41,709 nt of DNA from an uncultured Deinococcales bacterium (GCA_964247135.1 CAXTTL010000011.1:1-41709); one strand, 5' to 3'; positions 1-41,709 are shown, counted from the stretch's first letter. Notes: generated from the letters alone by a model not told the origin. Program-made: numbers and translations.

Positions 1-609
1 TAAGGCGCCTGGCAGCACAACAGCATCGACCCCGAGCGCGAGGTAGCGCAGCACGTCTGCGCCGTTGCGAACCGCGCCTTTGGCAAACAGCAGGGTGTCT
101 CCAACGGCGTCGCGCAAGTCTGGCACGAGGGCGACCAGACTTGGACCGCCGAGCCAGGCACTGAGGCTCGAGCTGGCAATGATGGCGTCTGCACCGGCTT
201 CGGCGGAAAGTTCGGCATCTCGAGGGTCGAGCAGTCCGGCGACCACGAAGGGCAGTCCGCAGGCGCTTTTGAGTTCGGAGAGTTCACCGGCGCTGCGTGG
301 GCGCGTCTCGAGGTCGGCGGCGAGGGCGCTGAAGTCCACACCGGCGGCAATCGCGCCCAAGTCTCGGGCTTCGCGCATCATGGGCACGAGCAGTTTCATT
401 TTGACGGGTGGCGCGAGCCAGATTGACCCCAGGGCGTCTTCGCGGCGGCTGGTGATGCGTCCAGTCCAGTTGGCGGGGACTTCCGCCCAGAGCGGTCCTG
501 GCAGCTCGAGGTCGAGTCCTGACCAGCTTGGGTTGACCTCGTCGGAGTCGTGGATCACCCTTGGCAGCAACTCGAGGTTGTCAAGGGCGATGATGTCTTT
601 GGCGTACAT
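1..609 (-). CDS. FMN-dependent alpha-hydroxy-acid oxidase-like protein, catalytically degenerate; 3' end outside window
   Basis: Not in the ORF track because it runs off the edge. Hand translation from ATG 609: MYAKDIIALDNLELLPRVIHDSDEV...LPFVVAGLLDPRDAELSAEAGADAII...KGAVRNGADVLRYLALGVDAVVL, matching glycolate/lactate oxidase-family segments. TAGGCT lies 6 nt before the ATG. Confidence 0.7.
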   Translation of the reverse strand, partial: MYAKDIIALDNLELLPRVIHDSDEVNPSWSGLDLELPGPLWAEVPANWTGRITSRREDALGSIWLAPPVKMKLLVPMMREARDLGAIAAGVDFSALAADLETRPRSAGELSELKSACGLPFVVAGLLDPRDAELSAEAGADAIIASSSLSAWLGGPSLVALVPDLRDAVGDTLLFAKGAVRNGADVLRYLALGVDAVVLPGAL

Positions 610-624
610 GGGTTTAGCCTAGCA

Positions 625-1302
625 CTAAGCTTCGTTGTTTTCGGCGCGAAAGCTCGAGCTGTAATTGTGCTCGAGGTGCGCCGAGTCGTTGTATGCAAGC
701 ATCGTGCCGCGCAGGGTGGCGTCTTGGTTGCTTAGAATTCTAAACCTGGTGATGCTGGTGTTTTCCAGACCGCCAAAATTGAGTTTTTGATCAAAGTCGC
801 CCAGCAACACGCTGGTGGCGGCGCGGATGCTGCCGCCGTGCGAGAACACGATCACGCGTCCGTCGGGGTGACGGCGTATCAATTCTTGCAAGCCGAGTTT
901 AACGCGTTCCATCAGTTCCGCTCGAGATTCGGCGTCGGGGTAACGTTCGGTGACCAGCACGGGTCGGGTTGCGCCACGCGCCTCGAGCATGGCGGCGACC
1001 TCGTTGGTGCTCAAGCCCTGCAATGCGCCGAGCATTTGTTCGCGCCAACGGGCGTCCGCCAAAACTTGGGTGCGTCCGCCCAGGTTGCTGTTGACAATTC
1101 TGGCGGTCTCGAGGGCGCGTGAGAGGTCGGAGCTGTAAATGGCATCGAAACTTGTGCCACGCAATCGGTGCGCCAACATGGTGGCTTGGTCGCGCCCGAG
1201 GCTCGAGAGTGGCACGTCGAGGTGTCCCTGGGCGCGGCGTTCGGTATTCCAGGTGGTTTCGCCGTGGCGCACCAGCCAGAGTTTGAGGGTCGGTTCAACC
1301 AT
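625..1302 (-). CDS. Histidine phosphatase (phosphoglycerate mutase family)
   Basis: LVRHGETTWN, SSDLSRALETA and FSHGG motifs. Start moved to ATG 1302 because the track's longer N-terminus overlaps the divergent gene. Confidence 0.9.
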   Translation of the reverse strand: MVEPTLKLWLVRHGETTWNTERRAQGHLDVPLSSLGRDQATMLAHRLRGTSFDAIYSSDLSRALETARIVNSNLGGRTQVLADARWREQMLGALQGLSTNEVAAMLEARGATRPVLVTERYPDAESRAELMERVKLGLQELIRRHPDGRVIVFSHGGSIRAATSVLLGDFDQKLNFGGLENTSITRFRILSNQDATLRGTMLAYNDSAHLEHNYSSSFRAENNEA

Positions 1303-1528
1303 GAAGCATCCAGTTTGGCAGGACTGCCCTTCCAGCCAGGGCGGCTCGAGTTGAGGGTGGTGTTTGGCGCACAGGGTGCATCCCACCATCATGCTATGGA
1401 TTTCATTTTGGGCGCGTGAAAATCCGCCATGTGCGTTTATTGAAAGGTCGTGGCAGTATCCTAAGCTCAGACGGTTTCTAAGATTTAAGCTGCACCAACA
1501 CAGACCTGATTTTCCAAGGAGTGACCCA

Positions 1529-3307: not shown

Positions 3308-4347
3308 TTTTGAGGGTCAATGCTGATGATCGGGCAGTTTTGAACGAATCCCGTGGCTCTCCAATTTGTGCCGTCGCTGGCGGTGATCGCGTGTTGTGCC
3401 GCCAAACTTGGCAGGCTCGAGAAGCTGGTTTGCAAGGTGTTGGTCTGGTCTTTCAGGGCTTGGCTCGACCAGACGCTGACGTGGGCGTCCATCAGCGGAC
3501 TGTATTTGGATGCAGGGTTTTTGTTGTCAGGTATGAACTCGAACACGTGCTGCGGGTCACCTTCGCCGTATAAAAAAGACAGTAAACCCTGGCGGTTTGG
3601 GTTCTCCAAACCCGATTGTCCGTTCACAAAAATGGCGATCCCGTTGCGGCTCGAGGTGGCGTCGCTCGCGCCCAAACGCGGCGCAAGGTTGAGTTTTGGT
3701 GTTAGCGTGGCAAACTCGAGCGTGGCGGGGATCGCGGCGGACGCTTCAAAGCAGGTGAACCACACTTTTGAACCTTCAAAAAATCCTTGACTGAAAAAAA
3801 GACTCACTTGATGTTTGACTGTGTCCAGTTCGATCACTCGGTCATGTACTCCAGTTTGGTTGGCGACTTGCGAGGCGTTCAAGACAATGCCGTTCGGTAG
3901 TTCGATCAACGGTGAATATTGACCTTTTGCGACGCTGCCAGGTTCGTAATTTTCGGGCGGGATGACGCTCGAGCCTGGGTTGAGAAACCAAGTCGCACTG
4001 AAATCGACGCCTGCCGAAACCTCCAGAATGCCGTCCACGAGTTTGGCTGGTTGAACGGCACTCGAGCCTCTGAGGTTAACCAATTTAGGCGCAAAATTGA
4101 CATGGCGTTTTAAAGCATCGTTTTGATCTGAAGATTCCGTGACCACGTACCAAAATGCTTGTCCATCGGCACGTCCCTGAAAAATCGGCAAGGTCACGGT
4201 TTTGAAATCTGGACTTTCAACTGCCGAAGGCATCAACAATTGGTGTTTTGATGCCAGCGCTGTGGTCTGCGCCAAGACGCCAAGACTCAGCAATGCGCAG
4301 GAAATCAGCAAGCTCGAGATGATGGCTAATTTTGCTTTGGTCTTCAT
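3304..4347 (-). CDS. Secreted hypothetical protein
   Basis: MKTKAK followed by a hydrophobic signal peptide from ATG 4347; TAGGCT 5 nt upstream; internal repeat of YSPL; stop overlaps the terC stop. Confidence 0.75.
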   Translation of the reverse strand: MKTKAKLAIISSLLISCALLSLGVLAQTTALASKHQLLMPSAVESPDFKTVTLPIFQGRADGQAFWYVVTESSDQNDALKRHVNFAPKLVNLRGSSAVQPAKLVDGILEVSAGVDFSATWFLNPGSSVIPPENYEPGSVAKGQYSPLIELPNGIVLNASQVANQTGVHDRVIELDTVKHQVSLFFSQGFFEGSKVWFTCFEASAAIPATLEFATLTPKLNLAPRLGASDATSSRNGIAIFVNGQSGLENPNRQGLLSFLYGEGDPQHVFEFIPDNKNPASKYSPLMDAHVSVWSSQALKDQTNTLQTSFSSLPSLAAQHAITASDGTNWRATGFVQNCPIISIDPQN

Positions 4348-4546
4348 GACCAAGCCTACAAGAATCCTAGGCTTGAATTTGCTTCCTGGACTCAATTTCG
4401 AGCTGTTCCGCCGTGAAATGGCGGAACAGCTCAAGTGAAACCATCAAAGGGACACGTCAAGGCGTCCGTTTCAGGGTGTAGAATCCCGATTGATGTGTTT
4501 TCGCTCGAGGCAGCAAAGCTTGCTCGAGCCGTAAAGGAGTCTGGTT

Positions 4547-5680
4547 GTGACCCAACCCGTTTTGGAAGGTTTAAGAGGCGTTGTTTTTACCGAATCCAAA
4601 CTCGCTTTTATCGACGGCGAGAAAGGCATTCTCAAGTACGTTGGCATTCCAATCCAAGAACTTGCCGAAAACAGCAGCTTCGAGGAAACCTCGTTTCTGC
4701 TCTTGAACGCAAGGCTGCCCAACAAACCTGAACTCGAGGAATTTGACGCGGCGCTCCGTTCGCGGCGGGTGGCACCTGCGGGTTTGATCGAATTGATGCG
4801 CATGTTCCCCAAAGACCTGCACCCGATGCACGCGCTGCGGACTGCCGTCTCGAGCCTTGCCATGTTTGACAAGGACGCCGACAACACCACTTTGGTAGGC
4901 AAACTCGAGAAAGCCTACAACCTGATCGCGCAGATGAGCACGATCATTGCGGCGCTCTACCGATTGCAACAAAACCTCGAGCCGGTCGCCCCGCGCAACG
5001 ATTTAACCCATGCCGCCAATTTCTTGTACATGATTCACAATGAAATCCCCAGCCCAGAACAGGCGCGGTTGTTCGACATTGCCCTGGTCTTGCACGCCGA
5101 CCACGGCATGAACGCCAGCACTTTCACGGGCATTGCGACCGCCAGCACGCTTTCGGACATGTACTCGAGCATCACCAGCGCGATTGGCAGCCTGAAGGGA
5201 CCACTGCACGGCGGCGCGAACGAGGCTGTTATGGACATGCTTGAAGACATTGGCGAGGTCGAAAAAGCCGAAAGCTACATCAGCGCCAAGCTCGAGCGCA
5301 AAGAAAAAGTCATGGGTGTGGGTCACGCGGTCTACAAGTTCTTTGATCCCCGCTCGAGGGTCTTAAAAGAGTACGCGGCGGTCGTGGCTGCCAAACACGG
5401 CGAGAGCAAGCAATACCAGATTTTATCCAAAGTCGAAGAGGTGGTCGTCGCCAGATTGTCCGCCAAAGGGATTTATCCCAACGTGGACTTTTATTCTGGC
5501 GTGGTTTACAGCGACCTCGGCATTCCAAAAGCCTTTTTCACGCCTGTCTTTGCTCTGGCGCGAATTTCGGGTTGGATGGCGAGCATCATCGAGTACACCC
5601 AACATAACAATCTGCTGCGCCCCACTGTCAATTACGTTGGACCCGACGAGTCGCACTGGATTCCGCTCGAGCAACGTTGA
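4547..5680 (+). CDS. gltA: Citrate synthase
   Basis: HADHGMNAST, GPLHGGANE, MGVGHAVYK and YPNVDFYSG motifs; AAGGAG RBS before the GTG start. Confidence 0.95.
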   Translation: MTQPVLEGLRGVVFTESKLAFIDGEKGILKYVGIPIQELAENSSFEETSFLLLNARLPNKPELEEFDAALRSRRVAPAGLIELMRMFPKDLHPMHALRTAVSSLAMFDKDADNTTLVGKLEKAYNLIAQMSTIIAALYRLQQNLEPVAPRNDLTHAANFLYMIHNEIPSPEQARLFDIALVLHADHGMNASTFTGIATASTLSDMYSSITSAIGSLKGPLHGGANEAVMDMLEDIGEVEKAESYISAKLERKEKVMGVGHAVYKFFDPRSRVLKEYAAVVAAKHGESKQYQILSKVEEVVVARLSAKGIYPNVDFYSGVVYSDLGIPKAFFTPVFALARISGWMASIIEYTQHNNLLRPTVNYVGPDESHWIPLEQR

Positions 5681-5834
5681 ATGGGTTTGTCTTGACCTTA
5701 AAAAATTGTGCGGTTTTGCAGTGATTTTGGCATTAAGCTGTACGCTCTAAGGAACAACGTTTTTAGCTTACTGCTTGAAGCTTATAGCTTATAGCCCTTT
5801 TGTCTGCTCGAGAATTCATACGTTAAACTCGAGC

Positions 5835-6902
5835 ATGAAGGTTTTAAAGATCAAAGATGTGGCGCTCGCGGCTGGGGTCAGCCCTGGAACGGCGTCCAAA
5901 GTTTTAACGGGCAATGGTGTGGCGTATCAGGTCAGCGCCAGCACCATCGAGCGCGTGCAACGGGTGGCGAAAGAATTGGGGTACGTGCCAAACATTGCCG
6001 CCCGCAATTTAAGGTTGCAACGCACGGGGCAAATCGGTGTGGTGCTCGAGGAGGTCATGGCGAACGAGGGTTCGGTCGACCTCGAGTTGGGTGATTTCAG
6101 GTTGTCGGCAATGGCTTCGGTGCGGCGAACCTTTGACGGCGCGATCATGGCGGGGCTGTCCGATGCGGCGCGTCAGCATCAACTCGAGGCGTTTGTGGTT
6201 TACCCAAAATTGAACTCGGCGGCGCACCTCGAGCCGAACCGATTTTTGGATGGTCGGATTGATGGGTTATTGATCGGGCGCAATCCTTTAAAGGCGAACG
6301 ATTTGATTTATCAGATCGATCCCGCGCGTTTGCCGCTGGTCGCACTGTGGACGCAAATCGTTCCCGAGGGTGTGGGTTATGCCGATGCCGATCAGTTTGG
6401 TGGCGGGGTCATGGCGGTGCGGCATCTGCTCGAGTTGGGACACCGCAAGATTGCGTTTTTTGGTTCGGGGATTCATTCTGGTATCGAGCATTTTGTCTTG
6501 CGACATCAAGGTTATCTCGAGGGTTTAAAAGCCGCAGGGATTGTCTCAAAACCAGAATGGCACGTCTCGAGTACCCAGAAATTGCTCGAGTTGTTGCGCG
6601 GTCAAGACCCTGTGACCGCCGTGTTTGCCGAAACCGATACCGAAGCCGCCGCCGTGGCTCGAGAGGTTCAGCGCTCGGGTTTGAGGATTCCCGAAGACAT
6701 TTCAATTGTTGGTTTTGACGATGTTTTTGGGGCAGATTTTATTGCGGGCGGCTTGACCACGATTTATCATCCAGCCCAGGAGATGGCGGCTGAAGGTGTG
6801 AAAAACCTGCTGGCGTTGTTGGCTGGCTCGGATGTTGAATTGTGTCGTTCAATCGTGTCGACTCGGGTTGTGAAGCGTCATACGACCGCGCCAGCAATTT
6901 GA
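5835..6902 (+). CDS. LacI family transcriptional regulator
   Basis: IKDVALAAGVSPGTASKVL HTH, YVPNIAARNL hinge and PEDISIVGFDD; TAAACT 5 nt before ATG 5835. Confidence 0.93.
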   Translation: MKVLKIKDVALAAGVSPGTASKVLTGNGVAYQVSASTIERVQRVAKELGYVPNIAARNLRLQRTGQIGVVLEEVMANEGSVDLELGDFRLSAMASVRRTFDGAIMAGLSDAARQHQLEAFVVYPKLNSAAHLEPNRFLDGRIDGLLIGRNPLKANDLIYQIDPARLPLVALWTQIVPEGVGYADADQFGGGVMAVRHLLELGHRKIAFFGSGIHSGIEHFVLRHQGYLEGLKAAGIVSKPEWHVSSTQKLLELLRGQDPVTAVFAETDTEAAAVAREVQRSGLRIPEDISIVGFDDVFGADFIAGGLTTIYHPAQEMAAEGVKNLLALLAGSDVELCRSIVSTRVVKRHTTAPAI

Positions 6903-6964
6903 GGGGGTAAGTTTCCTGTGCCAGGGTTTGTGATTCAGTACGGCTACACTTTTAACTCAAAAAA

Positions 6965-6981
6965 TGTTATACTCAGTTCAA
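6965..6981 (+). promoter_or_regulatory. Extended -10 (TGnTATACT) overlapped by a putative TetR-type FadR operator, TTATACTCAGTTCAA
   Basis: 15-bp imperfect palindrome at 6967-6981 fits the TTRNACYNRGTNYAA consensus I recall for Thermus FadR; it sits upstream of a beta-oxidation gene. Confidence 0.65.
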
Positions 6982-7017
6982 TAAAATTACAAACCCAAGA
7001 AGTCCGAGGAGGCAAGC

Positions 7018-8802
7018 ATGATCGCAGAACGCCCAGAACCCGTCACCAGCAAAAAAGGTGGCATGTTTTTGATCTCTCAAACCCCGCCCGACCAAACCCA
7101 CACGCCCGAAGATTTCTCGAGCGACGTGAAAGACATTTACAAAGCCGTGGACGAATTTGTGAAGGCTCGGGTCATGCCAAACATGGAAACGCTCGAGGCG
7201 CACGACAATGCGCTGTTAAAACAAATCTTGCACGAATGCGGCGACCAAGGTTTTTTTCAGGTCGAAGTGCCAGAGGCTTACGGCGGTCTGGACATGAGCA
7301 AAACCACCGCCACCTACGTCGGTGAAGCCCTGGCGCAGGCGGGCGGTTTTGCGGTGGCGTTCGGCGCTCATGCCAGCATCGGTATGCTGCCCTTGGTGTA
7401 CTTTGGAACGGAAGCTTTAAAAGCCAAATACCTCGAGCAGATGGCGGCAGGCAAATTGATTGGCGCCTACTGTCTGTCCGAACCAAGTTCTGGGTCGGAC
7501 GCCCAAGCCGCCAAAACCCGTGCCGTGCCAAGCGAAGACGGCTCGAGTTACAAGATTTCTGGCACCAAAATGTGGATTTCCAACGGCGGCATTGCCGACA
7601 TCTATACCGTGTTCTGCCAGGTCATCACCCCGCAAGGTCCAAAGTTTAGTGCGTTTTTGATCGAACGAAATTTTCCAGGCGTTTCCACCGGCAAAGAGGA
7701 ACACAAACTTGGAATCAAGCTTTCCAGCACCACGCAATTGATCCTCGAGGATGTGGTCGTTCCAGCCGAAAATTTATTGGGCGAGGTCGGTTGGGGCGCA
7801 AAAATTGCGTTTAATATTTTAAATATTGGGCGTTACAAACTCGGTTCTGGCGGTGTGGGCGGCAGCAAAGCGGTCTTGAACGCCAGCACCAAATACGCCA
7901 AAGAGCGCACCAGCTTCGGGCAACCGATTGCCAATTTTGGCGCGATTCAAGAAAAACTTGCCGAAATGTGCCTCGAGATTTACGCCGCCGAAAGTGTCAC
8001 CTACCGCGTCACGGGTTTGATCGACGAGATTGCCGACACCGCCAAAAGCAGTGCTGAGAAACTCAAAGCCATCGAAACCTACCGCGTCGAAGCCAGCATT
8101 GTGAAGGTTTACGGCACCGAAGTTTTGGCGTATTGCACCGACCAAGCCGTGCAGGTTTTTGGCGGTTATGGTTTCAGCGAGGAGTACCCGGTTGCTCGTG
8201 CGTACCGCGACGCCCGCATCAACCGCATTTTTGAGGGCACCAACGAAATCAACCGCATGATTATCCCAGGCGAACTCTTGAAAATGGGCATGAAGGGCGA
8301 AATTCCACTCATGCAAGCCGCCCAAAAACTTCAAGTGGAAATGCTCGAGCCAAGCTTTTCTGACGACACCGACGACGCGCCACTGGCGAATGAGACTCGA
8401 GTGGTCGAAGGGCTGAAAAAAGCGGCATTGCAGGTCGCGGGTTTGGCGGCACTGAAATTCAGCAATAAGCTGAGCGAACAACAAGAAATTTTGGCTCGGG
8501 TTGCCGACATCATCATCTCGAGCTTTGCAGGCGAAAGTGCGTTGTTGCGCACCCAGAAAATGATGGCGTCAGGTAAAAATGCTGACGTTCAAATTGCCAT
8601 GACCCAAGTGCTGGTGCATGACCTCGCCGAAAAATGCGCGGTCTGGGGACGTGAAGCCCTCTCGAGCTTTACCGAGGGCGACGATTTGCGACTAAACCTG
8701 GCAGCCATGAAACGCCTGACCAAACACGACAGCGTGAATGTCGTGGCGTTGCGCCGTCAGATTGCGGCGGCGGTCATCGAAGCCGACGGCTACCTGAATT
8801 AA
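7018..8802 (+). CDS. Acyl-CoA dehydrogenase (long, FadE-type with C-terminal extension)
   Basis: YCLSEPSSGSDA, GTKMWISNG, QVFGGYGFSEEY and RIFEGTNEINR motifs; GAGGAGG RBS. Confidence 0.95.
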   Translation: MIAERPEPVTSKKGGMFLISQTPPDQTHTPEDFSSDVKDIYKAVDEFVKARVMPNMETLEAHDNALLKQILHECGDQGFFQVEVPEAYGGLDMSKTTATYVGEALAQAGGFAVAFGAHASIGMLPLVYFGTEALKAKYLEQMAAGKLIGAYCLSEPSSGSDAQAAKTRAVPSEDGSSYKISGTKMWISNGGIADIYTVFCQVITPQGPKFSAFLIERNFPGVSTGKEEHKLGIKLSSTTQLILEDVVVPAENLLGEVGWGAKIAFNILNIGRYKLGSGGVGGSKAVLNASTKYAKERTSFGQPIANFGAIQEKLAEMCLEIYAAESVTYRVTGLIDEIADTAKSSAEKLKAIETYRVEASIVKVYGTEVLAYCTDQAVQVFGGYGFSEEYPVARAYRDARINRIFEGTNEINRMIIPGELLKMGMKGEIPLMQAAQKLQVEMLEPSFSDDTDDAPLANETRVVEGLKKAALQVAGLAALKFSNKLSEQQEILARVADIIISSFAGESALLRTQKMMASGKNADVQIAMTQVLVHDLAEKCAVWGREALSSFTEGDDLRLNLAAMKRLTKHDSVNVVALRRQIAAAVIEADGYLN

Positions 8803-8816: not shown

Positions 8817-8853
8817 AAATCTCGAGTGAAATGGTTTCACTCGAGATTTTTAT
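8817..8853. terminator. Intrinsic terminator hairpin between convergent genes, with CTCGAG in each arm
   Basis: AAATCTCGAGTGAAA-tgg-TTTCACTCGAGATTT, a perfect 15-bp stem followed by T's. Confidence 0.85.
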
Positions 8854-9437
8854 TTCAGCAATTCTTGACCGAGCGCCAAATAATCCGCCCAGGCGAAAGC
8901 CGCTCGAGGGTCGCGCACATCGCGGACGATCAAACCGTTTGCCACGGCTTTCTCGAATGCGGCATAACGCCGAATGTTGGTGGCAAAATGCGGCAGGTTT
9001 AACGATTTGAGTTTTGCCAGCGCCAAACCCGCGTCTTTGGACGGGGGCGGCGGCGCGAGCGTCACCAGCACCCGAAACGGTAAACCTTCCAGGTCATCCG
9101 CCAGAGGCTCGAGGGTCGCCAGTGAAAGCGTGTTCGGGGCGGTTGGAACGATCAGCAAATCGGCTTTCTGGCTGAATTCGTCGAGCGTTTTGGCTTTGGG
9201 TTGCGCCCGAGTATCCACAATCACAAAATCAAACTTTTTTGGTCTGGCGTCTTTGGGCAAGCAAACCGTAAAATCCAAGCCCGTACCTCGAGCCGCCCAA
9301 GTCAGTGCGCCACCGGCAGGATCGGCATCGATCAACAGCGTTTTTCCTCGAGCCGATAAAACCGCCGCCAAATGAATGGCGGTCGTGGTTTTTCCGACGC
9401 CACCTTTGAGCGATGTGATGACAAAACGAACCGGCAA
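8850..9437 (-). CDS. Short ParA/Soj-family ATPase (orphan)
   Basis: Deviant Walker A KGGVGKTT, LLIDADP and IVDT motifs; AAGGAG RBS before TTG; TAGAAT upstream. Confidence 0.9.
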   Translation of the reverse strand: MPVRFVITSLKGGVGKTTTAIHLAAVLSARGKTLLIDADPAGGALTWAARGTGLDFTVCLPKDARPKKFDFVIVDTRAQPKAKTLDEFSQKADLLIVPTAPNTLSLATLEPLADDLEGLPFRVLVTLAPPPPSKDAGLALAKLKSLNLPHFATNIRRYAAFEKAVANGLIVRDVRDPRAAFAWADYLALGQELLK

Positions 9438-9519
9438 GAAATGCTCCTTTGTTGGTTTGATTCTAACGGATTTGCGTTTTGAATGGCGAACTCGAGATGT
9501 CTGCTCGAGCCTCGAGCCA

Positions 9520-10269
9520 TCAATTCAGTTTGGTCATGATTTCGCGCACCACAGCCCAGTCAACGCGCCTCAACGTGCCAACGCGCAACAACAACTCGAG
9601 CCGCATTTTGAGCATCAACTCGACGTCAATCTCTGACTTCCAACGTTTTAGCGCCAAATCCAGGGCAGGCTGCTCGAGTCGAGAGCATTCAAACTCAAGG
9701 CTGCTCCAACCCGCGCCGGTCCAATCGATCAAACCAGAGTACGCACCCTCAAACTCGAGCACGTTGTCTTGCCAGGCGTCGCCGTGAATAAAAGCATGGT
9801 TTTTGATGGCGTGTTTCGAGATGAGGATGTGCTCCAGCGTTTTGCGCTCAACCCCAGTCCAGTTTGCCATGTTTTGCGTGCGTTCAATCCAGACCTCGTG
9901 CGAAATCCACTCTTCGGGCAGGTCCTCGGGTGCAACCTCGAGCGGGTGGGCGTGAAGTTTCTCGAGGTCACCCAGCAGCGAATCCCAGAGTGTTGCGGGG
10001 CTGGTGTTGCGATTGCTGCGAACTCCAGGCAGGCGTTTCCAGATCGAATAATCCTGTCCAAAAGCCACACAGGCGGCGGTTGTCACCCCAAGCTTCAGCG
10101 CCGCTTGAGCCAGCCGAGCCTCACGCGCATGGTCGGCTAAAACAGTGTTCCTCGAGATTCTGAGCACGTACTCTTCGCTCATGAAAACATGATTGTCGTA
10201 ACCCGCGCCGGCTGGTTCAAAGGTCTTAAACTTCAGCTTGTGGCGCTCAAAAATGTCTTCTGGATTTAA
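9520..10269 (-). CDS. Aminoglycoside-phosphotransferase (APH/choline kinase-like) family protein; start codon uncertain
   Basis: HGDAWQDNVL (Brenner motif) and GLIDW. The frame stays open upstream of ATG 10182 and encodes PEDIFERH...GAGYDNHVFMSEEYVLRI. Confidence 0.8.
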   Translation of the reverse strand, partial: LNPEDIFERHKLKFKTFEPAGAGYDNHVFMSEEYVLRISRNTVLADHAREARLAQAALKLGVTTAACVAFGQDYSIWKRLPGVRSNRNTSPATLWDSLLGDLEKLHAHPLEVAPEDLPEEWISHEVWIERTQNMANWTGVERKTLEHILISKHAIKNHAFIHGDAWQDNVLEFEGAYSGLIDWTGAGWSSLEFECSRLEQPALDLALKRWKSEIDVELMLKMRLELLLRVGTLRRVDWAVVREIMTKLN

Positions 10270-10940
10270 AGCGTTGGTTGCGATATCGCACCCTCCACCC
10301 AGCGTTCACCCGACTCCGCGACCTCGAGTTTCCAGACGGGCAATCTGGACTTCGCCTCGTCCACCAACCACGGTACGGCGTCCAGGCAGGCACGGCGATG
10401 GCTGCTGCCGGCGCCGACAAAAATACTGATTTCGCCAGGCAGCACGATGCCGGTTCGGTGTGCAAGAACCACCGCGCCCAAATCCCATGTCGCCCTGGCT
10501 TCGAGCGCCAAATCGCGCATCACATTCCGGCAAAGCGCAGGGTACGCCTCGTACTCGAGCCTTAAAATGTCCAGGTTTTTGTTGGGTGTGCGGGTGCTGC
10601 CAGTGAACACGGCTTGCCCGCCCCAACCTGGGCGAATCAATTTGGCGTGAAGCTCAGCTATCGGTAGGGTTTCAGCGCTGACCAGAAAGAAATCCGGTTC
10701 GGCTTCGCCGCCAGCCACCGGCGGGATAAATGCCAGGGTATCACCAGGGTTCAAAATCACATCTGGCGTGGCGTACTCGTCGTTGACGGCAACCATCGAG
10801 CCAGCCAACTCGAGGTTGAATTTCAGTTCGACCAGACGCGCCGCCTCGCGCACGGTTGCCGCGTTTGCCAGCTCAAAAATGGTTTCAGAAATTCCAGCCG
10901 TTCGTTTGTGGCTGGCAAAGAAAAGCAATTTCACGTTCAT
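10266..10940 (-). CDS. Molybdopterin synthase MoaD-MoaE fusion
   Basis: ThiS/MoaD domain ending FIPPVAGG, then MoaE motifs LEYEAY, HRTG, SSHR and LPVWKLE; TAAACT 6 nt before the ATG. Confidence 0.92.
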   Translation of the reverse strand: MNVKLLFFASHKRTAGISETIFELANAATVREAARLVELKFNLELAGSMVAVNDEYATPDVILNPGDTLAFIPPVAGGEAEPDFFLVSAETLPIAELHAKLIRPGWGGQAVFTGSTRTPNKNLDILRLEYEAYPALCRNVMRDLALEARATWDLGAVVLAHRTGIVLPGEISIFVGAGSSHRRACLDAVPWLVDEAKSRLPVWKLEVAESGERWVEGAISQPTL

Positions 10941-11060
10941 GGGCTAAGTTTAACCGCCTTCACCTGGGAAGCATGAAATTCTGCCCCGCGCAAATCGTGA
11001 CATGTGAAACCAAAGTCGTTTTCGACCAGCCAAGGAATTTCAGGTCGGTAGACTAAAGAA

Positions 11061-11894
11061 GTGTTGTCCAGCCTGAAACCCGATTATTCACGGACACCCA
11101 TTTTGTCGGGACGGGTCAGGGGGGCGTACCTCCCAGCCTTTCTCGAGTTCATGAGCGCCACCGCGCACACGGGCACGCTCGAGGTTGAAGGACCAAACGA
11201 GGTTAAATCGCTGGTGGTTGTGATCGCTGGACTCGTCAAATTTGCCGAAACCGAATCCGAAGACGGCAACATCAGCATCGGCACCGAGGCATTGCGGGCA
11301 ATGTTGCGCTGGCGTTACGCCTTTTGCAATGTTTATGATGGTTATCTCGAGGTCGTGCCCAACATCAACGGTTCGATTATTGGGGTTTTGATCGAGGCGG
11401 CGCGGCTCGAGGACGAAGCCAGCCGAGAACGCAGCTTGCCGCCCAGCGCCAGAATTCGGGTGCGCAACAACGTCTCGGCTTACGAATCGCTCGGCGCCCC
11501 AGAAATGATGCTGCTCTCCAAAGCCCGCACCGGAATCACCGTTGGCGACTTGCGCAAGGTCTTGCCAGGAATGCCCGTGGACAGCGCGATACTCGAGCTT
11601 CACGGCCAAGGCATTCTCGAGGTTGAGGGTTTAAAAGCGCCGAGTTCCCTAAATGCCACCGCCGAATTTCGGGCGTTGTTGGTGATGGTCGTGCCGCGCC
11701 AAGTGCCAAAGCGCCCGATGGGACGCAACGCGCCGAGAACATCAACGCAAATGACCAGCTTGCACAAAACCGTGTTCGATCTGGTCAACGGCGAGCGCAG
11801 CGCCGAAAACATTCGCAACGAATTGCGGCTCTCGCCGGGTACAATGCGTGATATCTTGCAATCGCTGCGGAGTGCCTCATGGATCGAATACTAA
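11061..11894 (+). CDS. DUF4388 (PATAN-like) domain protein with C-terminal winged-helix-like repeats
   Basis: G-x-V...LPAFLEFM...HTGTLEV...GVLIEAARLEDE pattern; TAGACT 6 nt before the GTG. Confidence 0.7.
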   Translation: MLSSLKPDYSRTPILSGRVRGAYLPAFLEFMSATAHTGTLEVEGPNEVKSLVVVIAGLVKFAETESEDGNISIGTEALRAMLRWRYAFCNVYDGYLEVVPNINGSIIGVLIEAARLEDEASRERSLPPSARIRVRNNVSAYESLGAPEMMLLSKARTGITVGDLRKVLPGMPVDSAILELHGQGILEVEGLKAPSSLNATAEFRALLVMVVPRQVPKRPMGRNAPRTSTQMTSLHKTVFDLVNGERSAENIRNELRLSPGTMRDILQSLRSASWIEY

Positions 11895-12469: not shown

Positions 12470-12502
12470 AACAAACCCTCGAGCTTTAAACTCGAGGGTT
12501 TG
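12465..12502. terminator. Hairpin with CTCGAG arms; U-tract on the minus strand
   Basis: CAAACCCTCGAG-ctttaaa-CTCGAGGGTTTG, a 12-bp stem at 12472-12502 with an A-run on its left. Confidence 0.75.
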
Positions 12503-12678
12503 CCTTGTGAGCAGCAGGTTTTCGGGAGGTTGAGTCAACAAGGGACGCTCACGGAATCCGGTATTGCTACAGGTATTGTGCACCTTAAAATTGCCGTTCG
12601 ATGTGCAAAATGCACACGGAAACCAGACGCGCATTTGAACCTCGAGAAAGCGCCAGGACTGGGTTACAATTTGCAACC

Positions 12679-21896: not shown

Positions 21897-22013
21897 TCTA
21901 TTTTAGCTTTTTTGTCGTGAATGGCGTATGAGGCTCGAGGATTCAGTTTTGGCTGCAAAATTGTTCACTTTTGACTGGGATACTTTACAGCACGTCGCCA
22001 AACGACAAATGCT

Positions 22014-22047
22014 TGTAAGGATTCTGTAAGTACCCTTGATCTACACT
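22014..22047 (+). promoter_or_regulatory. Putative promoter of the peptide gene: direct repeat TGTAAG-N5-TGTAAG plus -10 TACACT
   Basis: Repeats at 22014 and 22025 (11-bp period) in place of a -35; TACACT at 22042-22047. Confidence 0.5.
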
Positions 22048-22079
22048 ACCTCCAGTTACCAATTTAGGGGGAACCAAAG

Positions 22080-22259
22080 ATGCTTAAAAAATTACTGATC
22101 GGATTGTTTTTACTGGGAATGTTGTGTGGTGCGGGTTCAATTAGCGCTGGTCCTCTTGGGGCACGTGCAGCAAATCCATCTGAAGACGGTGGTTCAGCCT
22201 CGATGACGGCGGATAGTCCAAAAGGCAAAACCATTTTGTGCAGTGGCGGAAACTGCTAA
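22080..22259 (+). CDS. 59-aa secreted peptide precursor, putative signalling peptide
   Basis: Hand translation: MLKKLLIGLFLLGMLCGAGSISAGPLGARAANPSEDGGSASMTADSPKGKTILCSGGNC*. AGGGGGA RBS, Sec-type signal peptide and own terminator. Shorter than any ORF in the track. Confidence 0.85.
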   Translation: MLKKLLIGLFLLGMLCGAGSISAGPLGARAANPSEDGGSASMTADSPKGKTILCSGGNC

Positions 22260-22278
22260 AAAAATCATAAATTTGATG

Positions 22279-22314
22279 AACCAGGCTTTGGTTTGACTGA
22301 AGTCTGGTTTTTTT
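22279..22314 (+). terminator. Intrinsic terminator of the peptide gene
   Basis: AACCAGGCTTTGGT-ttg-ACTGAAGTCTGGTT, a 14-bp stem with G-U pairs on the + strand, followed by a T-run. Confidence 0.85.
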
Positions 22315-22480
22315 GTGGTTCGATTTGCCAGATTTAAAAGTTCTTGATTTTTGACGGTCTTCATGATTTACAACCGAGTTTTGGGTTAAGTTGGTTTCAA
22401 TGTTCCAGGTAGAAGATGCTAGGAAAACTTCCACATAAAAATCTACTTTTGGGGAAATATATGAAGGTCAAGTTTTTATC

Positions 22481-24172
22481 ATGCAAAAAGTAATCAGTGA
22501 AACTCCAGCGACGCTAGAGCCGTATACCAAGTTAATTGAAGCTCTAACTTCGTCCAACATGATCGAATCAGACCCTCTTAAGGCACTCGATTCGATCTTG
22601 GTGGCTCGAGAATTGGCGTTTGAGTTAAATGATGTAGAGTCGGTCGCTAAATTTTATCAATTTGAAGGCAACTGTCTTTTTTATCTATCGCGTTTTCCAG
22701 AGGCACTTAAAGCAACTTACATTGCTCTGGATGTGTTTACCAAATCCGAGAATTATCCTGTGATTATTGCCTGTCAAATTGAAATCGGGCTTTGTTACAT
22801 GTATCTTGGAGATTTTTCAGATTGCATCGAGTGGCTTGAATTGGCTTTAACAAATTCCAAAACCCATAACAGACCCTTTGGCATCTATACCAGTTTAAGC
22901 AATATGCGTGATGCCGAGATAAAATTGGGAAATCTGGAGCAGGCACTTAAATATAGTGAAGATAGTCTCTCTCTAGCAAAAGAACTAAAAAGTGGTTATC
23001 GAATTGCCAATGAACAGTTAGAACTTGGCAATACACATGTCAAATTGGGGCAAAGAGATTTTCATATTGATCCAAAAGAATCTTTAAAACGATTTGAAGT
23101 AGGATACCAGCTATTTTGTCAAGCTCATGAAACACTAGAAAAAGACAAAATCTATGGTTTTGAGGTGGCTATTTTAAATGCAAAAACCACTGTATTGGCT
23201 GAATTGGGTCAAATTGAACAAGCATTCAGCACCAGTGAATTGGCTTTATTAGAAGCAAAGAATAACGATGATCCCTCACTTAGAGCAGATTGTGAAAAAA
23301 TCAGGGGTTGGCTCTACTTCAAAACAAATCAAAACACCAAAGCACTACATCACTATGAAAAAGCGCTCGAAATTTACGTTTCGATTGGTAAAAAAGATGA
23401 AGTTGCCAGCATTCACCGTGAATTGGCAAAAGTTTGCAAAGCAAATCATCAGTATATCGAAGCTTTAGAGCACCTCGAGAAATTTTATGCGTTGGACGCT
23501 CAACTTCGCTCCGATGCCGCCGAACGTCGGGCGCAGGCTTTGGCGGCAAAACTTGACCTCGAGAAAGCCCGTCACGATGCCGAAATGCACCGTGTGCGCA
23601 GTGAAGAATTGGCGGCGCTCAATTTGCAATTGCAAAATCAGGCGGTGCTGCTCGAAAAACTTGCCAGGGAAGATGAGTTGACGGGTTTGGCGAACCGGCG
23701 CAAGCTCGAGGAATTTGCGATTCAGGCTTTCGCCGAATCCAGGGTGAACCATTCGACGCTTTGCATGGCAATCGCCGATTTGGATTTTTTTAAGGGCGTC
23801 AATGATCGTTTTGGTCATGCCACGGGTGACAATGTCATGCGGGTTTTGGGTGCGATTTTGCGGGAGCATTGCCCAGAGGGCGCTTTGGCGGCGCGGTTTG
23901 GTGGCGAGGAGTTTGTGCTGATCTTGCCGTACACCAAAGCGGAGGATGCGTTTGTGTTGTGCGAGAATATTCGGATCAGTTTGCAAAATTACAACTGGAA
24001 ACAGCTTCATCCGAATTTGGCGGTGACCATCAGTTTGGGTTTGAGTGACTCTCATGAGGCTTCGACCCATGAACGTTTGCTGTCGCTGGCTGATTTGCGG
24101 CTTTACGAAGCCAAAAATGCGGGTCGCAATTGTACGCGACCTCAACTGTTGCAAACTTCAAATCAAGCCTAA
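22481..24172 (+). CDS. TPR-repeat diguanylate cyclase (GGDEF)
   Basis: N-terminal TPR array, coiled coil, DELTGLANRR, DLDFFKGVNDRFGHATGD, ARFGGEEF and AKNAGRN motifs; no TM segment or signal peptide. Confidence 0.93.
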   Translation: MQKVISETPATLEPYTKLIEALTSSNMIESDPLKALDSILVARELAFELNDVESVAKFYQFEGNCLFYLSRFPEALKATYIALDVFTKSENYPVIIACQIEIGLCYMYLGDFSDCIEWLELALTNSKTHNRPFGIYTSLSNMRDAEIKLGNLEQALKYSEDSLSLAKELKSGYRIANEQLELGNTHVKLGQRDFHIDPKESLKRFEVGYQLFCQAHETLEKDKIYGFEVAILNAKTTVLAELGQIEQAFSTSELALLEAKNNDDPSLRADCEKIRGWLYFKTNQNTKALHHYEKALEIYVSIGKKDEVASIHRELAKVCKANHQYIEALEHLEKFYALDAQLRSDAAERRAQALAAKLDLEKARHDAEMHRVRSEELAALNLQLQNQAVLLEKLAREDELTGLANRRKLEEFAIQAFAESRVNHSTLCMAIADLDFFKGVNDRFGHATGDNVMRVLGAILREHCPEGALAARFGGEEFVLILPYTKAEDAFVLCENIRISLQNYNWKQLHPNLAVTISLGLSDSHEASTHERLLSLADLRLYEAKNAGRNCTRPQLLQTSNQA

Positions 24173-26576: not shown

Positions 26577-27914
26577 CTAAACGCCGTTCATGCTCAACCA
26601 ATTTTGAAATGCCAAAAGTCCTCGCTCGAACAAAATCGGACGTTTTTCTTTGCGTCCCAATTTCTTGTTTTTGGCATGTTCTTCTGGGAATTCAGAGCGC
26701 TCGAGGTCGGGAATCAGCGCCCAGTTGGTGTTCATGGGTTGAAAATTTTTGGATTCGGCGGTCGCCAGAAAACGTACCAATCCGCCCAACATGGTCGTTG
26801 GCGGCGGCGTGACTGGTGTTAGACCTTTGGCAATTCGTGCGGCATTGACCCCAGCCAACCAGCCCGTGGCGGCGCTCTCGAGGTAACCTTCGGTGCCAGC
26901 CAAGACGCCGGCGGTCAAGACATTCGGGTGTTCTTTAAATTGCAGGCTCGAGTTCAGTAATTTTGGCGCATTTAAGTAGGTGTTGCGGTGCATCACGCCG
27001 TAACGGGCAACCTCGGCGTTTGCCAGCCCAGGGATCAATCGCACAATTTCTTTTTGGTCGCCCCACTTTAAGCCCGTCTGAAAGCCCACAATGCTCCACA
27101 GGCGCCCCTCGAGGTCTTCCTGGCGAAGTTGCGCCACGGCATAAGGTTCACGTCCTGTGCGAGGGTCTGGCAGCCCTTTGGGTTTTAACGGACCAAAGCG
27201 CGGCGTGTCCACCCCGCGACGCGCAATCTCTTCGATGGGCATACAACCCTCAAAAAACTCGAGTTTCTCCCAGTCGTGCGGCGTGTGCGAACGGGCTTGC
27301 TCGAGCGCGGCATAAAAAACCGCGTACTCTTCGCGGTCGAACGGGCAGTTCAAATAATCTGCCTCCTGCCCGTAACGTCCGGCGCGGTAAACAATCTCAA
27401 GGTCAATGCCCTCAAACTCGAGCACGGGCGCGGCGGCATCGTAAAACGCCAGACGTTCGTTGTGGGCAAAACGGTTAAGAATATCGTTTGCCAACCCGTC
27501 CGAGGTCAACGGTCCGGTGGCGATCACCACCACGCCCTCGGGGACTCGGGTCAATTCCTGGCGCAAGAATTCAATGTTTGGATGCGCATCGAGGGCGTGG
27601 GTAATGCTTTGGGCAAAACCTTCCCGTTCGACCGCCAAGGCGTTGCCGGCGGGCAATTTGTGCTCGAGAGCGGCTTGCATGACGTTGACGTTGGCGGCTT
27701 TCAGTTCGGCTTGCAACATGCCCTTGGCGTTGGTCTCACCCATGCCGCCCAAACTGTTACTGCACACCAGTTCGGAGGCTTTTGCCGATTGATGGGCGGG
27801 CGTCATTTTTTCGCCGCGCATTTCATACAATGTGACCCGCACGCCGCGATCCGCCGCAGCCAGTGCCGCCTGCGATCCGGCGAGTCCAGCGCCAATAACC
27901 GTAATTTCGTTCAC
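26577..27914 (-). CDS. trmFO: Methylenetetrahydrofolate-tRNA(uracil-5) methyltransferase
   Basis: GAGLAGS, ELVCSNS, FFEGCMPIEE, GVMHRNTY and FQPMN motifs; TAGACT 6 nt before GTG 27914. Confidence 0.96.
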   Translation of the reverse strand: MNEITVIGAGLAGSQAALAAADRGVRVTLYEMRGEKMTPAHQSAKASELVCSNSLGGMGETNAKGMLQAELKAANVNVMQAALEHKLPAGNALAVEREGFAQSITHALDAHPNIEFLRQELTRVPEGVVVIATGPLTSDGLANDILNRFAHNERLAFYDAAAPVLEFEGIDLEIVYRAGRYGQEADYLNCPFDREEYAVFYAALEQARSHTPHDWEKLEFFEGCMPIEEIARRGVDTPRFGPLKPKGLPDPRTGREPYAVAQLRQEDLEGRLWSIVGFQTGLKWGDQKEIVRLIPGLANAEVARYGVMHRNTYLNAPKLLNSSLQFKEHPNVLTAGVLAGTEGYLESAATGWLAGVNAARIAKGLTPVTPPPTTMLGGLVRFLATAESKNFQPMNTNWALIPDLERSEFPEEHAKNKKLGRKEKRPILFERGLLAFQNWLSMNGV

Positions 27915-27993
27915 GTCCAAAGTCTACCGCGTGAAAGCATTCAGCCAAAATGCAAACTGCTGTCACCTTGAAATGGAATGACTCGAGATTGAT

Positions 27994-39388: not shown

Positions 39389-40498
39389 ATGAACGCCATT
39401 CGCGGTACAACCCAGCCAGAATCAAGAATCGAAAACAACACCCGAACTCGAGTTTCCTGGGGTGCCGATCTGGTCACGATTGTTCTGGGTTTGTGGTTGA
39501 TCGGTGGGGTTTTCGCCGATGGTTTCGCGCACAACAACTTAAGAAACACCCTTGACAGCTTTTTCTCGCCCTGGCACGCCATTTTATACTCTGGATTTAC
39601 CGCCACCGCACTGTGGATTGCTTGGCTGGTCGCCGGTCAAGCTCGAGCCGGCTTGCGTGGTCTGAATGCCCTGCCCATCGGTTACGAATGGGGCGCGTTG
39701 GGTATCATCGTGTTTGGTTTGGGCGGCGTTGGCGATCTGATCTGGCACAGCCTTTTTGGCATCGAAGTCGGTACGAGCGCCCTGCTCTCGCCAACCCATT
39801 TGATGCTGCTGGCTGGCGGGGTCATGATCCTGACCAGCCCAGTCCGTAGCGCTTGGAACTCGAGCATGGGTGCCAAACCGAAGTTCCTCGAGTTTCTGCC
39901 AGCGCTGCTGGGTTCGTTTGCCGCGTTTAGTTTTGTCACGTTCATGCACATGTACAACTGGGGGCTAACCAGCTTGCCCACGTCCAAATCGTTCATGGAC
40001 CGAATTTCTTACGGCAGCGATCACTTTATCGAATACCTGCACCGTGAGGCGGCGGGCGGCATTTTGTTCTCAAACGTGATTTTGGTCGGTGTGGCATTGC
40101 TCTTGTTGCGCCGCTGGCAGACTCCCTTTGGCACGTTCACCATCATTTACGGCGTCAACACGACCATCATGAGTTACATGCTCGGCGGTTCGACCAGTGG
40201 TCTGGTCGCGCCGATCATTGCCGGTTTTGGGGCGGGCATCATCACCGACATTCTGGTGCAGGTGCTTCAACCCAAACCAACTCGGGTTTTTGAATGGCGC
40301 TTGTTTGCGGCACTCGTGCCGCTGGTGACTTGGAGTTTGCATTTTATGACGGTTGCCTTTTTATCCGACGGCGGCATTGGCTTAAACCGCGAATTCTGGA
40401 CGGGGATTATTGTCATGAGTGCATTTTCTGGATTGGTTTTGAGTGTACTGTCAGTCCCAGGAACAACACCAGAAACGCCCTCTAAGCTCGAGCCTTAA
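39389..40498 (+). CDS. Polytopic membrane protein with two D-x3-H...SPxH motifs
   Basis: About 10 hydrophobic helices; DGFAH...FFSPWH and DLIWH...LLSPTH. Confidence 0.8.
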
Positions 40499-40868
40499 AA
40501 AAATCCGCCACTATTTTGGCGGTGAAAATCAAAGCCAGTAGCCAAATCACAATCATGAACGCCGCCGCAACATAACTGACGGGTTTGGATTCGGCTTTGG
40601 ACGCCTGCACTCGAGCGTCCTCGAGCACGTTTTTCGGCACGAGTTTCATGACCAACCAAATGCCGGCAGGCACCAGAATCAAATCGTCCAACAATCCCAA
40701 AACCGGAATGGCATCTGGAATCAAATCAAACGGCGAGAGCGCATAGCCCACCACCACAAACGCCAAACCTCGAGCGTACCAGGGCGTGCGGGTGTCTCGA
40801 GCCACAAAATAAAGGGTCATGACCTCGTGCTTGAGGCGTTTGGCGGCGGTTTTGAATTGCTCGAGCAT
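40482..40868 (-). CDS. YkvA/DUF1232 family protein
   Basis: RTPWYAR and [21 protein letters not shown] motifs. Confidence 0.9.
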
Positions 40869-40873
40869 CGGTT

Positions 40874-41709
40874 TTAAGCATCGCCAAGAAGCGCATCGAC
40901 AAATTCTTTGGCGTCAAACGGCTGCAAGTCCTCTTTGCTTTCACCGACCCCAATAAACTTGAGCGGTACGCCAAGTTCGCGCACAATCGGCACGACGATG
41001 CCGCCCTTGGCGGTGCCGTCGAGTTTGGTCACGATCACGCCAGTCAATCCCACCGCCTCATGGAACTTTTTGGCTTGCTCCAGACCGTTCTGCCCGGTGA
41101 CCGCGTCGAGCACCAACCAGATTTCGGCGGGTTCTTTGGGGTCGGCTTTGGTGATGGTGCGTTTGACTTTTTTCAATTCTTCCATCAGGTTGTGTTTGGT
41201 GTGCAGCCGCCCTGCGGTGTCCACGAACAACAAATCTGTCCCTCGAGCCAGTCTGGCACTGGCGGCATCGAACGCCACCGCCGCAGGGTCGCTGCCGTCG
41301 GCGCCTTGCACCACATGAATGCCCAGGCGTTCGCCCCAAACGCCCAGTTGCGCCCCCGCCGCAGCGCGGAAGGTGTCGCCCGCAGCAAACATCACGGTTT
41401 TGCCCGCGTTTTGGTAATACTCGCCCAGTTTGGCAATCGTGGTGGTTTTGCCCACGCCGTTCACACCGATCATCAAAATCACTTTGCCTTTAGGTTCGAG
41501 CAAGGATTTTTTGGCGTCGGGTGTAAAACCCGCCGCACGAATTTTAGCCCTGAACTTGTCAGGCTCGAGTTGCTGGGTTAACGCCTGCGCCAGCGCGTCG
41601 CGCAAATCTTTTTTGCCCGTTTCACGCATTTGGGCTTTGACATCTTCCAGAATGTCTTTGGCTGCCGCCCCGCCCACATCTGCGCCGATCAGGGCAAACT
41701 CCAAATCCT
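40874..41709 (-). CDS. ftsY: Signal recognition particle receptor (5' end outside window)
   Basis: [29 protein letters not shown] and [10 protein letters not shown] motifs. Confidence 0.97.

Follow-up and report, generated by a model that had tools for sequence, protein, structure and literature searches.

Hyper-iteration of the palindrome CTCGAG across a family of uncultured Deinococcales bacteria

The palindrome CTCGAG is repeated at extreme density throughout the genome of an uncultured Deinococcales bacterium and the genomes of its family, where a selection-like bias for the complete double-stranded hexamer, acting on the DNA and not on the proteins, maintains the individual sites. The hexamer was examined in a stretch of 41,709 bp (CAXTTL010000011.1, here called the window) and in the whole assembly to which it belongs (GCA_964247135.1, here G000; 5.09 Mb in 386 contigs, G+C 52.7%). 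The window contains 298 sites, or 7.14 per kb, where base composition predicts 0.275 per kb (about 11.5 sites), and none of 100 dinucleotide-preserving shuffles of the window reached that number (mean 7.95, maximum 15). Across the assembly there are 33,925 sites (6.66 per kb, or about one per 150 bases), which is 24.7 times the expectation from composition, and CTCGAG is the top over-represented hexamer in the genome. A maximal-order Markov model of the genome returns a ratio of observed to expected of only 1.24, because the 5-mers CTCGA and TCGAG are almost wholly the motif itself, so that the signal is absorbed and not explained.

These counts bear out a preliminary description of the window, drawn from its sequence alone, which had given about 155 sites in the first 20 kb (156 were counted) and 7–8 per kb against about 0.27 expected, and had placed sites in all three reading frames, in housekeeping genes and in intergenic DNA, with three of them clustered at 9491-9516. 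In the window, frames 0, 1 and 2 hold 168, 37 and 61 sites and another 32 lie outside called genes, the gene calls being crude. The possibility raised in the same description, that the enrichment was confined to this contig, is contradicted by its extent over the assembly. The features of the window that illustrate the distribution are as follows.

167..41569, unstranded: all 298 sites of the hexamer, from 167-172 to 41564-41569
4547..5680, plus strand: citrate synthase gene (Pfam Citrate_synt, E 3e-134), a housekeeping example with eight sites, at 4733, 4849, 4904, 4976, 5164, 5291, 5353 and 5666
9491..9516, unstranded: cluster of three sites (9491, 9504 and 9511) within an 82-bp spacer between the minus-strand genes 8850-9437 and 9520-10182
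21940..23473, unstranded: sparsest stretch, with a single site (22605) in 1.5 kb of intergenic DNA and the 5' part of a TPR-GGDEF gene; local G+C about 48%

The largest gaps between sites in the window, of 671 and 869 bp, both lie within the last of these stretches, and the gene that it enters (22481-24172) has Pfam matches to GGDEF and TPR. Since CTCGAG is self-complementary, two neighbouring copies, such as those at 9491..9516, could pair as a 6-bp stem.

Distribution and independence from protein coding

Genes were predicted across the assembly with our own crude caller (4,538 genes, 84% coding), and shuffle statistics were computed on 3,130 confident coding sequences (CDS). Site density is 6.54 per kb in coding and 7.27 per kb in non-coding DNA, the latter being the remaining 16%, which includes missed genes. 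The confident CDS contain 23,927 sites, of which 15,016, 3,363 and 5,548 lie in frames 0, 1 and 2. When synonymous codons were shuffled within genes (10 replicates) 3,279 sites were obtained, so the observed number is 7.3-fold higher, and when codon order was shuffled there were 1,429, for an excess of 16.7-fold. The codon-shuffle check proposed in the preliminary description thus leaves the enrichment standing, and its view that amino-acid bias does not explain the sites is upheld.

The choice of codons depends on what stands next to them. CTC makes up 92% of leucine codons before GAG, against 13% where the next codon begins with a base other than G; GAG makes up 94% of glutamate codons after CTC, against 32–34% elsewhere; and CGA makes up 82% of arginine codons in the context xCT-Arg-Gxx, against 10–12% elsewhere. 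The effect extends to the proteins. No dipeptide of the proteome is more over-represented than Leu-Glu, which has 19,210 occurrences against 8,200 expected (2.34x), and 78% of these pairs (15,016 of 19,210) are encoded by CTCGAG, while Glu-Leu, at 8,309, is at expectation. One gene of the window served as an ortholog probe.

26577..27920, minus strand: TrmFO/GidA-family gene (Pfam GIDA, E 2e-88), the product of which has eight Leu-Glu and three Glu-Leu pairs

TrmFO orthologues of the CTCGAG-rich clade have a mean of 8.6 Leu-Glu per 447 aa (n = 16), compared with 4.5 in Deinococcus-like (n = 41) and 4.8 in Meiothermus/Truepera-like genomes (n = 22), and each of the three groups has about 3 Glu-Leu. 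The pressure is exerted on the DNA; it overrides codon choice, has doubled the number of Leu-Glu dipeptides and has altered proteins. It is next to impossible that codon or amino-acid usage, or an artefact of assembly, accounts for the excess: although 63% of coding sites sit in the Leu-Glu frame, as usage would have it, the excess survives both kinds of shuffle, the density in non-coding DNA equals that in coding DNA and codon choice varies with neighbouring context, and the trait recurs family-wide in independent assemblies, one of them a one-contig chromosome. Both explanations were rejected on these grounds.

Along the assembly, the spacing between sites is near-exponential (mean 148, median 108, coefficient of variation 0.96), no gap in the 5 Mb exceeds 2,644 bp, and no periodicity beyond the 3-base codon period was detected at the short range that can be followed in 386 contigs. 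Pairs closer than about 60 bp are under-represented, with 4,254 and 6,228 per 30-bp bin against about 7,100 farther out, and pairs 13–20 bp apart account for 6.2% of consecutive pairs in non-coding DNA versus 2.9% in coding DNA. Density is flat over the starts and ends of genes, but it doubles, to 13.3 per kb, over the 30 nt that follow stop codons. Only 11 of 1,957 genes of 900 bp or longer are free of CTCGAG. Density falls to 1.95 per kb in predicted tRNA genes and to 5.6 per kb in genes of the top coding-score class; restriction-modification cassettes of atypical G+C have 3–8 per kb, with one pair, apparently recent, at 0–1.3 per kb.

Conservation, per-site bias and phylogenetic range

It is the six bases alone that matter. 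The flanks show only a mild preference for G at position -1 (38.6%), and among 7- to 10-mers no dominant longer word was found behind the hexamer. The nine one-mismatch classes occur at 0.5–1.7x expectation, except for CTAGAG at 0.08x, which contains the avoided CTAG, and each class is 14–50-fold below CTCGAG; the depletion of such variants that the preliminary description had suggested looking for is therefore not seen outside CTAGAG. Among dicodons, CTCGAG and CTCGAA occur in a ratio of 15,016:965, against a background GAG:GAA ratio of about 1:2, so that CTCGAG is favoured about 30-fold, equivalent to a scaled advantage (S) close to 3.

The closest relatives are uncultured metagenome-assembled genomes (MAGs) labelled 'Deinococcales bacterium', and three of them, with 82–83% DNA identity to the window over 13–21 kb, were used to examine conservation. 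They keep 73–78% of the CTCGAG sites of the window, compared with 37–40% of all hexamers, so that the conservation in orthologs proposed earlier as a check is indeed found. Private sites occur on each side, for example 40 and 26 in the pair with locus L003, and sites therefore turn over. In codon counts that pool the three relatives, which are not independent of one another, conserved Leu-Glu pairs retain CTC-GAG unchanged in 193 of 217 cases (88.9%), whereas other conserved dipeptides retain their codons in 4,648 of 9,142 (50.8%), and Leu-Glu pairs written in any other way do so in 19 of 52. CTC is kept in 92.6% of cases when followed by GAG and in 55.8% elsewhere, and GAG in 94.5% after CTC and in 60.5% elsewhere. 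After simple Poisson correction, the rate of loss at synonymous positions inside sites is 0.11–0.13 of the control rate, or 7–9x slower. Frame-0 sites that are not shared align either to a synonymous Leu-Glu (33 cases) or to a replaced pair, for example Leu-Asp, Leu-Ala, Leu-Lys or Ser-Glu.

From these counts we infer that the complete hexamer is favoured, with S of about 3 per site. At S = 3.2, the natural logarithm of 24.7, the expected relative fixation of losses, S/(e^S-1), is 0.14, close to the 0.11–0.13 observed, so the enrichment and the loss rate appear to fit one mutation-bias-drift equilibrium, the two values being set against each other directly and not through a fitted model. A bias that is much the same at every position suggests that all six bases are read together, in the simplest case by a dimeric DNA-binding protein common to the family, and speaks against repair of one particular mismatch. 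To account for the observations, the bias must favour the hexamer as a unit, reduce its loss and promote its gain, operate on any resident DNA and be shared by the family.

The phylogenetic range was surveyed with locus samples of about 20 kb for named taxa and with whole-genome counts, those of the family based on rounded genome sizes and the others drawn from a phylum sample of 150 genomes; the labels Thermus and Meiothermus on whole genomes are inferred. No 16S gene was found in assembly G000 by a universal-primer motif search. In the locus samples, CTCGAG stands at 12–32x expectation in 17 loci of 'Deinococcales bacterium' MAGs, at 4–8x in named Meiothermus and at 0–0.6x in named Deinococcus. 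All 18 other genomes of the same family-level group, which span five genera, have 4.3–6.8 sites per kb. The 82 genomes of the Deinococcus-like family are depleted, with 26–2,175 sites each, and 27 genomes of about 2.2 Mb, inferred to be Thermus, have 0.7–1.5 per kb, and in these CTCGAG does not outnumber its reverse, GAGCTC. In three genera of 2.4–3.9 Mb, inferred to be Meiothermus and its kin, there are 1.4–3.4 per kb with GAGCTC 2–43x rarer, and a fourth family in the sample reaches 2.4 per kb. The trait is graded, and the window's family lies at its extreme. As a separate observation, TCGA is nearly absent from two Deinococcaceae/Deinococcus MAG loci (L030 and L032, at 0.04x and 0.07x), which suggests TaqI-type restriction pressure there.

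Viral contigs were scanned for three close CTCGAG sites and yielded at least 120 stretches, most of them from GC-rich phages in which GAGCTC is equally common. Four IMG/VR contigs (L182, L119, L125 and L159) have dense CTCGAG (4–6 per kb) and zero GAGCTC, the double signature of the family. Eight chosen viral stretches, including these four, gave no tblastx similarity to G000, and phages sharing the signature were not linked to this genome.

Avoidance of other palindromes and the search for enzymes

Most other palindromes have been purged. Of the 64 hexamer palindromes, 48 occur at less than 0.5x and 28 at less than 0.1x expectation (median 0.15), compared with a median of 0.81 for the 2,016 non-palindromic words, and the earlier statement that restriction sites are normally avoided is amply confirmed. 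GAGCTC is absent against 1,371 expected, GGGCCC occurs once and GAGCCC/GGGCTC stands at 0.003x, words that together spell GRGCYC; the depleted GGATCC, AGATCT and AGATCC/GGATCT together spell RGATCY. Both patterns match degenerate Type II sites. Genome-wide, the tetramers GGCC and CTAG are at 0.016x and 0.07x. The window itself has no GAGCTC, GGATCC, CTGCAG or GGGCCC, and a single GGCC. Restriction and methylation genes related to this avoidance were found in G000 and in two other family genomes, G011 and G005.

G000 contig C320 (locus L099), 2152-2985 and 1061-2155, both minus strand: D12 adenine methylase, then SacI-family endonuclease (PF09566, E 8e-7)
G000 contig C21 (locus L095), 5623-8157, and contig C192 (locus L096), 4855-7644: two genes (844 and 929 aa) for Type IIG restriction-methylases of the MmeI family
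G011 contig C1, 368533-369102: BglII-family endonuclease (Endonuc-BglII, PF09195), a profile match
G000 contig C14 (locus L088), 6040-7936, and G005 contig C6 (locus L229), 3808-4668: swapped restriction-modification locus, with an open reading frame (ORF) of no assigned family and a C5 methylase in the former and a D12 methylase in the latter

The D12-class methylase of L099 is 75–83% identical in G011 and G005. The SacI family (PF09566) occurs in 6 of 19 family genomes and in none of 12 outgroups, whereas GAGCTC is near-absent (25 copies or fewer) in 16 of the 19, which indicates that avoidance outlasts the presence of the enzyme. The MmeI-family gene of L095 has no match to the target-recognition and C-terminal domains. 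The BglII-family enzyme of G011 is in line with the avoidance of AGATCT and RGATCY. At the swapped locus, the flanking genes are 88–97% identical between two genomes of one genus, and the site is a hot spot at which restriction-modification cassettes replace one another. The family evolves under intense and changing restriction, and the licence enjoyed by CTCGAG is all the more striking.

A link of the motif to DNA methyltransferases had also been put forward in the preliminary description, together with a search for an enzyme that targets CTCGAG or TCGA, and the search lends the link no support. The XhoI endonuclease family (PF04555) is absent from all 19 family genomes. One Thermus-like relative (G021) does have an XhoI-family nuclease, adjoining an N6_N4 methylase that has 63%-identical relatives in two other non-family genomes; in the 19 family genomes this methylase has no close homologue and only local matches of 33–47% (likewise by tblastn on G000), and XhoI-type restriction-modification was rejected as the cause. 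TaqI_C was found in none of five family genomes and TCGA outside CTCGAG occurs at about 1.05x (20,685 versus 19,771), which removes a TaqI-type TCGA methylase as a candidate. Very-short-patch (VSP) repair was likewise set aside, Vsr being found in none of the five (MutH was not searched for). In the same five genomes, a search with six Pfam methylase families gave no conserved orphan methylase, methylases of unrecognised families being beyond its reach. Matches to Eco57I, N6_N4, N6_Mtase, C5 and D12 methylases are patchy: the one-contig chromosome G011 has no N6_N4 methylase, G008 has no C5 methylase, and the C5 methylases of the other four are mutually only 28–35% identical. With such patchy repertoires and swapped cassettes, a conserved orphan methylase of these classes was discarded. 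Taken together, the data rule out three causes: bias in codons or amino acids, a cognate system of the XhoI type, and repair directed at one kind of mismatch.

Elsewhere in the window, two adjoining minus-strand genes at 18994-21896 encode a 518-aa DUF5691 protein (E 9e-105) and a 449-aa protein with a SWIM zinc finger; they are preceded by two co-oriented ORFs (16983-18997), in an operon without assigned function.

Possible mechanisms and comparison with known systems

By analogy with known systems we tentatively favour, with more doubt than confidence, a reading of CTCGAG as a self-DNA tag that is recognized during DNA exchange or recombination and has spread by molecular drive. In passages of the literature on HIP1, the highly iterated palindrome of cyanobacteria (GCGATCGC), purifying selection on its sites (PMC5861425) and a role in transformation or uptake (PMC13756078) have been described. 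The tag would be read in the uptake or integration of kin DNA, and the drive would resemble the one invoked to explain uptake sequences in Neisseria and Haemophilus and, in recent work, HIP1. The setting would be a lineage with heavy DNA traffic past restriction enzymes, as may be judged from the near-total purge of other palindromes and the swappable restriction cassettes.

Several points weigh against this. ComEC and DprA are found in five of five family genomes, but both also match many controls, some of them not known to be transformable, so their presence only fails to refute the idea and merely permits transformation. No reader protein was identified. Known uptake sequences are non-palindromic, 9–12 bases long and present at about one per kb, and CTCGAG, as a palindromic hexamer at 6.7 per kb, does not conform to this pattern. 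DNA uptake in Thermus and Deinococcus is not known to be sequence-specific. With no excess over GAGCTC in the inferred Thermus genomes and depletion in Deinococcus, the trait would have to be something new that arose in this family and the Meiothermus-like genera. Counts cannot separate selection from biased gene conversion, and they depend on crude gene calls, in which the 16% called non-coding includes missed genes.

Other mechanisms could produce a bias of this kind. A methyltransferase shared by the family, with no partner nuclease, might mark CTCGAG, and the mark might serve repair, replication, regulation or protection, or feed a methylation-directed mismatch-repair ratchet such as Elhai 2015 (PMC4390886) proposed for HIP1. 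The word is palindromic, like the targets of Type II methylases, and a CTCGAG-specific system does exist in the phylum, in G021 and, as 63%-identical methylases, in two further non-family genomes. In addition, passages of a hot-spring metaepigenome preprint, which do not give the phylum, describe CTCGAG and TCGA methylation as common to one host-virus subnetwork (10.64898/2026.06.24.734251), and the effect of HIP1 on transformation is given as methylation-dependent in passages of PMC13756078. We nevertheless think methylation unlikely as the basis: the enzymes just listed either lack close homologues in the family or, as with TaqI_C, Vsr and the N6_N4 and C5 methylases, are missing or highly divergent in genomes that share the trait, D12 and N6 methylases occur in only some of the genomes, in cassettes that supplant each other at one locus, and a ratchet working on one mismatch would not yield a similar bias at all six positions. 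Decidedly improbable, in our estimate, is a selfish conversion or repair biased toward the motif, in which a restriction-enzyme-like protein recognizes heteroduplexes and directs repair to the CTCGAG strand without serving the cell. The uniform and modest per-site bias would suit such a process, as would the occurrence of CTCGAG wherever it is tolerated (mobile restriction-modification cassettes included), the near-exponential spacing with only the 3-base period, and the lower density under the highest constraint, in tRNA genes and the top coding-score class. However, no candidate enzyme was found, Vsr being absent from the five genomes, and the enzyme would need to cope with every type of mismatch. 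The deficit of pairs within about 60 bp also hints at diminishing returns, not expected of a drive that acts on each site independently, though hairpin avoidance could cause the same deficit.

Similarly slender is the prospect that CTCGAG is the binding site of an abundant nucleoid or chromosome-architecture protein, as Xu et al. 2018 proposed for HIP1. A palindrome suits a dimeric binder, coverage is even (longest gap 2.6 kb in 5 Mb) with close pairs under-represented, and the trait is family-wide, but there is no short-range periodicity except the codon period and no candidate protein was found. The hexamer might also be a palindromic, Chi-like self signal for the helicase-nuclease AddAB, so dense that resection of the cell's broken chromosome would halt after some 150 bases, whereas DNA free of CTCGAG would be degraded. 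The genome has the corresponding operon.

G000 contig C24 (locus L104), 8923-11784 and 11748-14555, both minus strand: AddA/AddB operon

AddB is present in 18 of 19 family genomes and in nine of nine sampled genomes of three other CTCGAG-bearing families, and in none of three Deinococcus-like genomes, which belong to the only group depleted in CTCGAG; RecC was found in none of five family genomes. Known Chi words, moreover, are over-represented. A Chi-like role is still very unlikely, as the AddB correlation rests on a single evolutionary loss, the Thermus-size genomes have AddB and yet no excess of CTCGAG over GAGCTC, and no known Chi comes anywhere near this density. Known Chi words are also asymmetric, strand-biased and read on a single strand, according to passages of PMC5861425, and strand bias is impossible for a palindrome. 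We would give equally faint credence to a fuller scenario in which the family kept the AddAB that Deinococcus lost, its DNA, mobile genes included, became saturated with a bidirectional Chi that halts AddAB within about 150 bases and so spares shattered chromosomes, and an arms race with phages raised the density. A bidirectional Chi at this density, if true, would be a new form of self/foreign discrimination and a testable model for HIP1-type words.

The known systems nearest to CTCGAG share some features with it and differ in others. XhoI/PaeR7I systems recognize the same six bases, and one occurs in the Thermus-like relative, but cognate restriction predicts avoidance, as is seen for GAGCTC with the SacI-family nuclease, whereas CTCGAG is 25-fold enriched here, and in 19 family genomes neither an XhoI-family nuclease nor a related methylase was found. 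VSP repair, which is said to have been reported by Bhagwat and McClelland in 1992 to shape CCWGG-related words in E. coli, is alike in that a repair bias can raise the frequency of a methylase-target word, but it acts on one T:G mismatch, while CTCGAG is biased alike at six positions and Vsr is absent from all five genomes. Chi, the signal of RecBCD and AddAB, shares with CTCGAG the character of a short, over-represented, self-marking word, and an AddAB operon is present here, but Chi is non-palindromic and strand-biased in passages of PMC5861425, and much rarer. The DNA uptake sequences of Neisseria (DUS) and uptake signal sequences of Pasteurellaceae (USS) resemble CTCGAG in a genome-wide excess in both genes and spacers, an influence on protein sequence, enrichment just after genes, copies able to form hairpin stems and an explanation by molecular drive with a small bias per site; they are asymmetric, unlike this palindromic hexamer, and PMC5861425 gives their length as about 10 bp.

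The likeness to HIP1 that the preliminary description had proposed holds in that CTCGAG is palindromic, about 25-fold enriched, present in all frames and between genes, conserved in position and not explained by amino-acid or codon bias. Passages of PMC5861425 place the threshold for a HIP-type word at an enrichment of more than 15-fold over composition; CTCGAG stands at 24.7-fold genome-wide, is present in coding and non-coding DNA, is conserved across genomes and occurs lineage-wide (18 of 18); a conserved orphan methyltransferase recognizing the word or its core was not found with six Pfam methylase families in five family genomes. HIP1 and the alternate cyanobacterial HIPs, as described by Elhai 2015 (PMC4390886), Xu, Lawrence & Durand 2018 (PMC5861425) and PMC13756078, are like CTCGAG short palindromes, tens-fold enriched and lineage-wide. 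HIP1 and CTCGAG both lie in coding and non-coding DNA, have spread by substitution and not insertion, and are conserved between genomes; their hosts otherwise avoid palindromes and carry many restriction systems. For HIP1, quasi-periodic spacing of 10–90 kb has been reported. The differences are that CTCGAG is a hexamer and HIP1 an octamer, that they belong to different phyla, that HIP1 has the methylases DmtC and DmtA where no conserved orphan methylase was found for CTCGAG, and that CTCGAG strongly affects the proteome (Leu-Glu 2.3x). At 6.7 per kb CTCGAG is also far denser than HIP1, for which passages of PMC5861425 give more than one motif per gene in some genomes.

A literature search, which left aside supplementary files that may hold genome surveys, found no report of CTCGAG over-representation in the Deinococcota, and the string 'Deinococc' does not occur in the HIP1 papers PMC4390886, PMC13756078 and PMC5861425, supplements again excluded; we claim no more than that no publication was found. 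The density of CTCGAG, together with the near-absence of other palindromes, gives the family a sharp signature that would be useful for binning and for spotting imported DNA, and the doubling of one dipeptide across the proteome is a clear case of a force at the level of DNA rewriting proteins. Meiothermus loci and Meiothermus-size genomes carry about 2–3.4 sites per kb and, if cultured strains are among them, experiments become possible. HIP1 has stood unexplained for three decades and has been thought peculiar to cyanobacteria. CTCGAG is a second, denser and independent case of the HIP1 type, in another phylum, with a different word and no matching conserved methylase found, and this second case, with its measurable advantage per site, turns a single curiosity into a class that can be compared.

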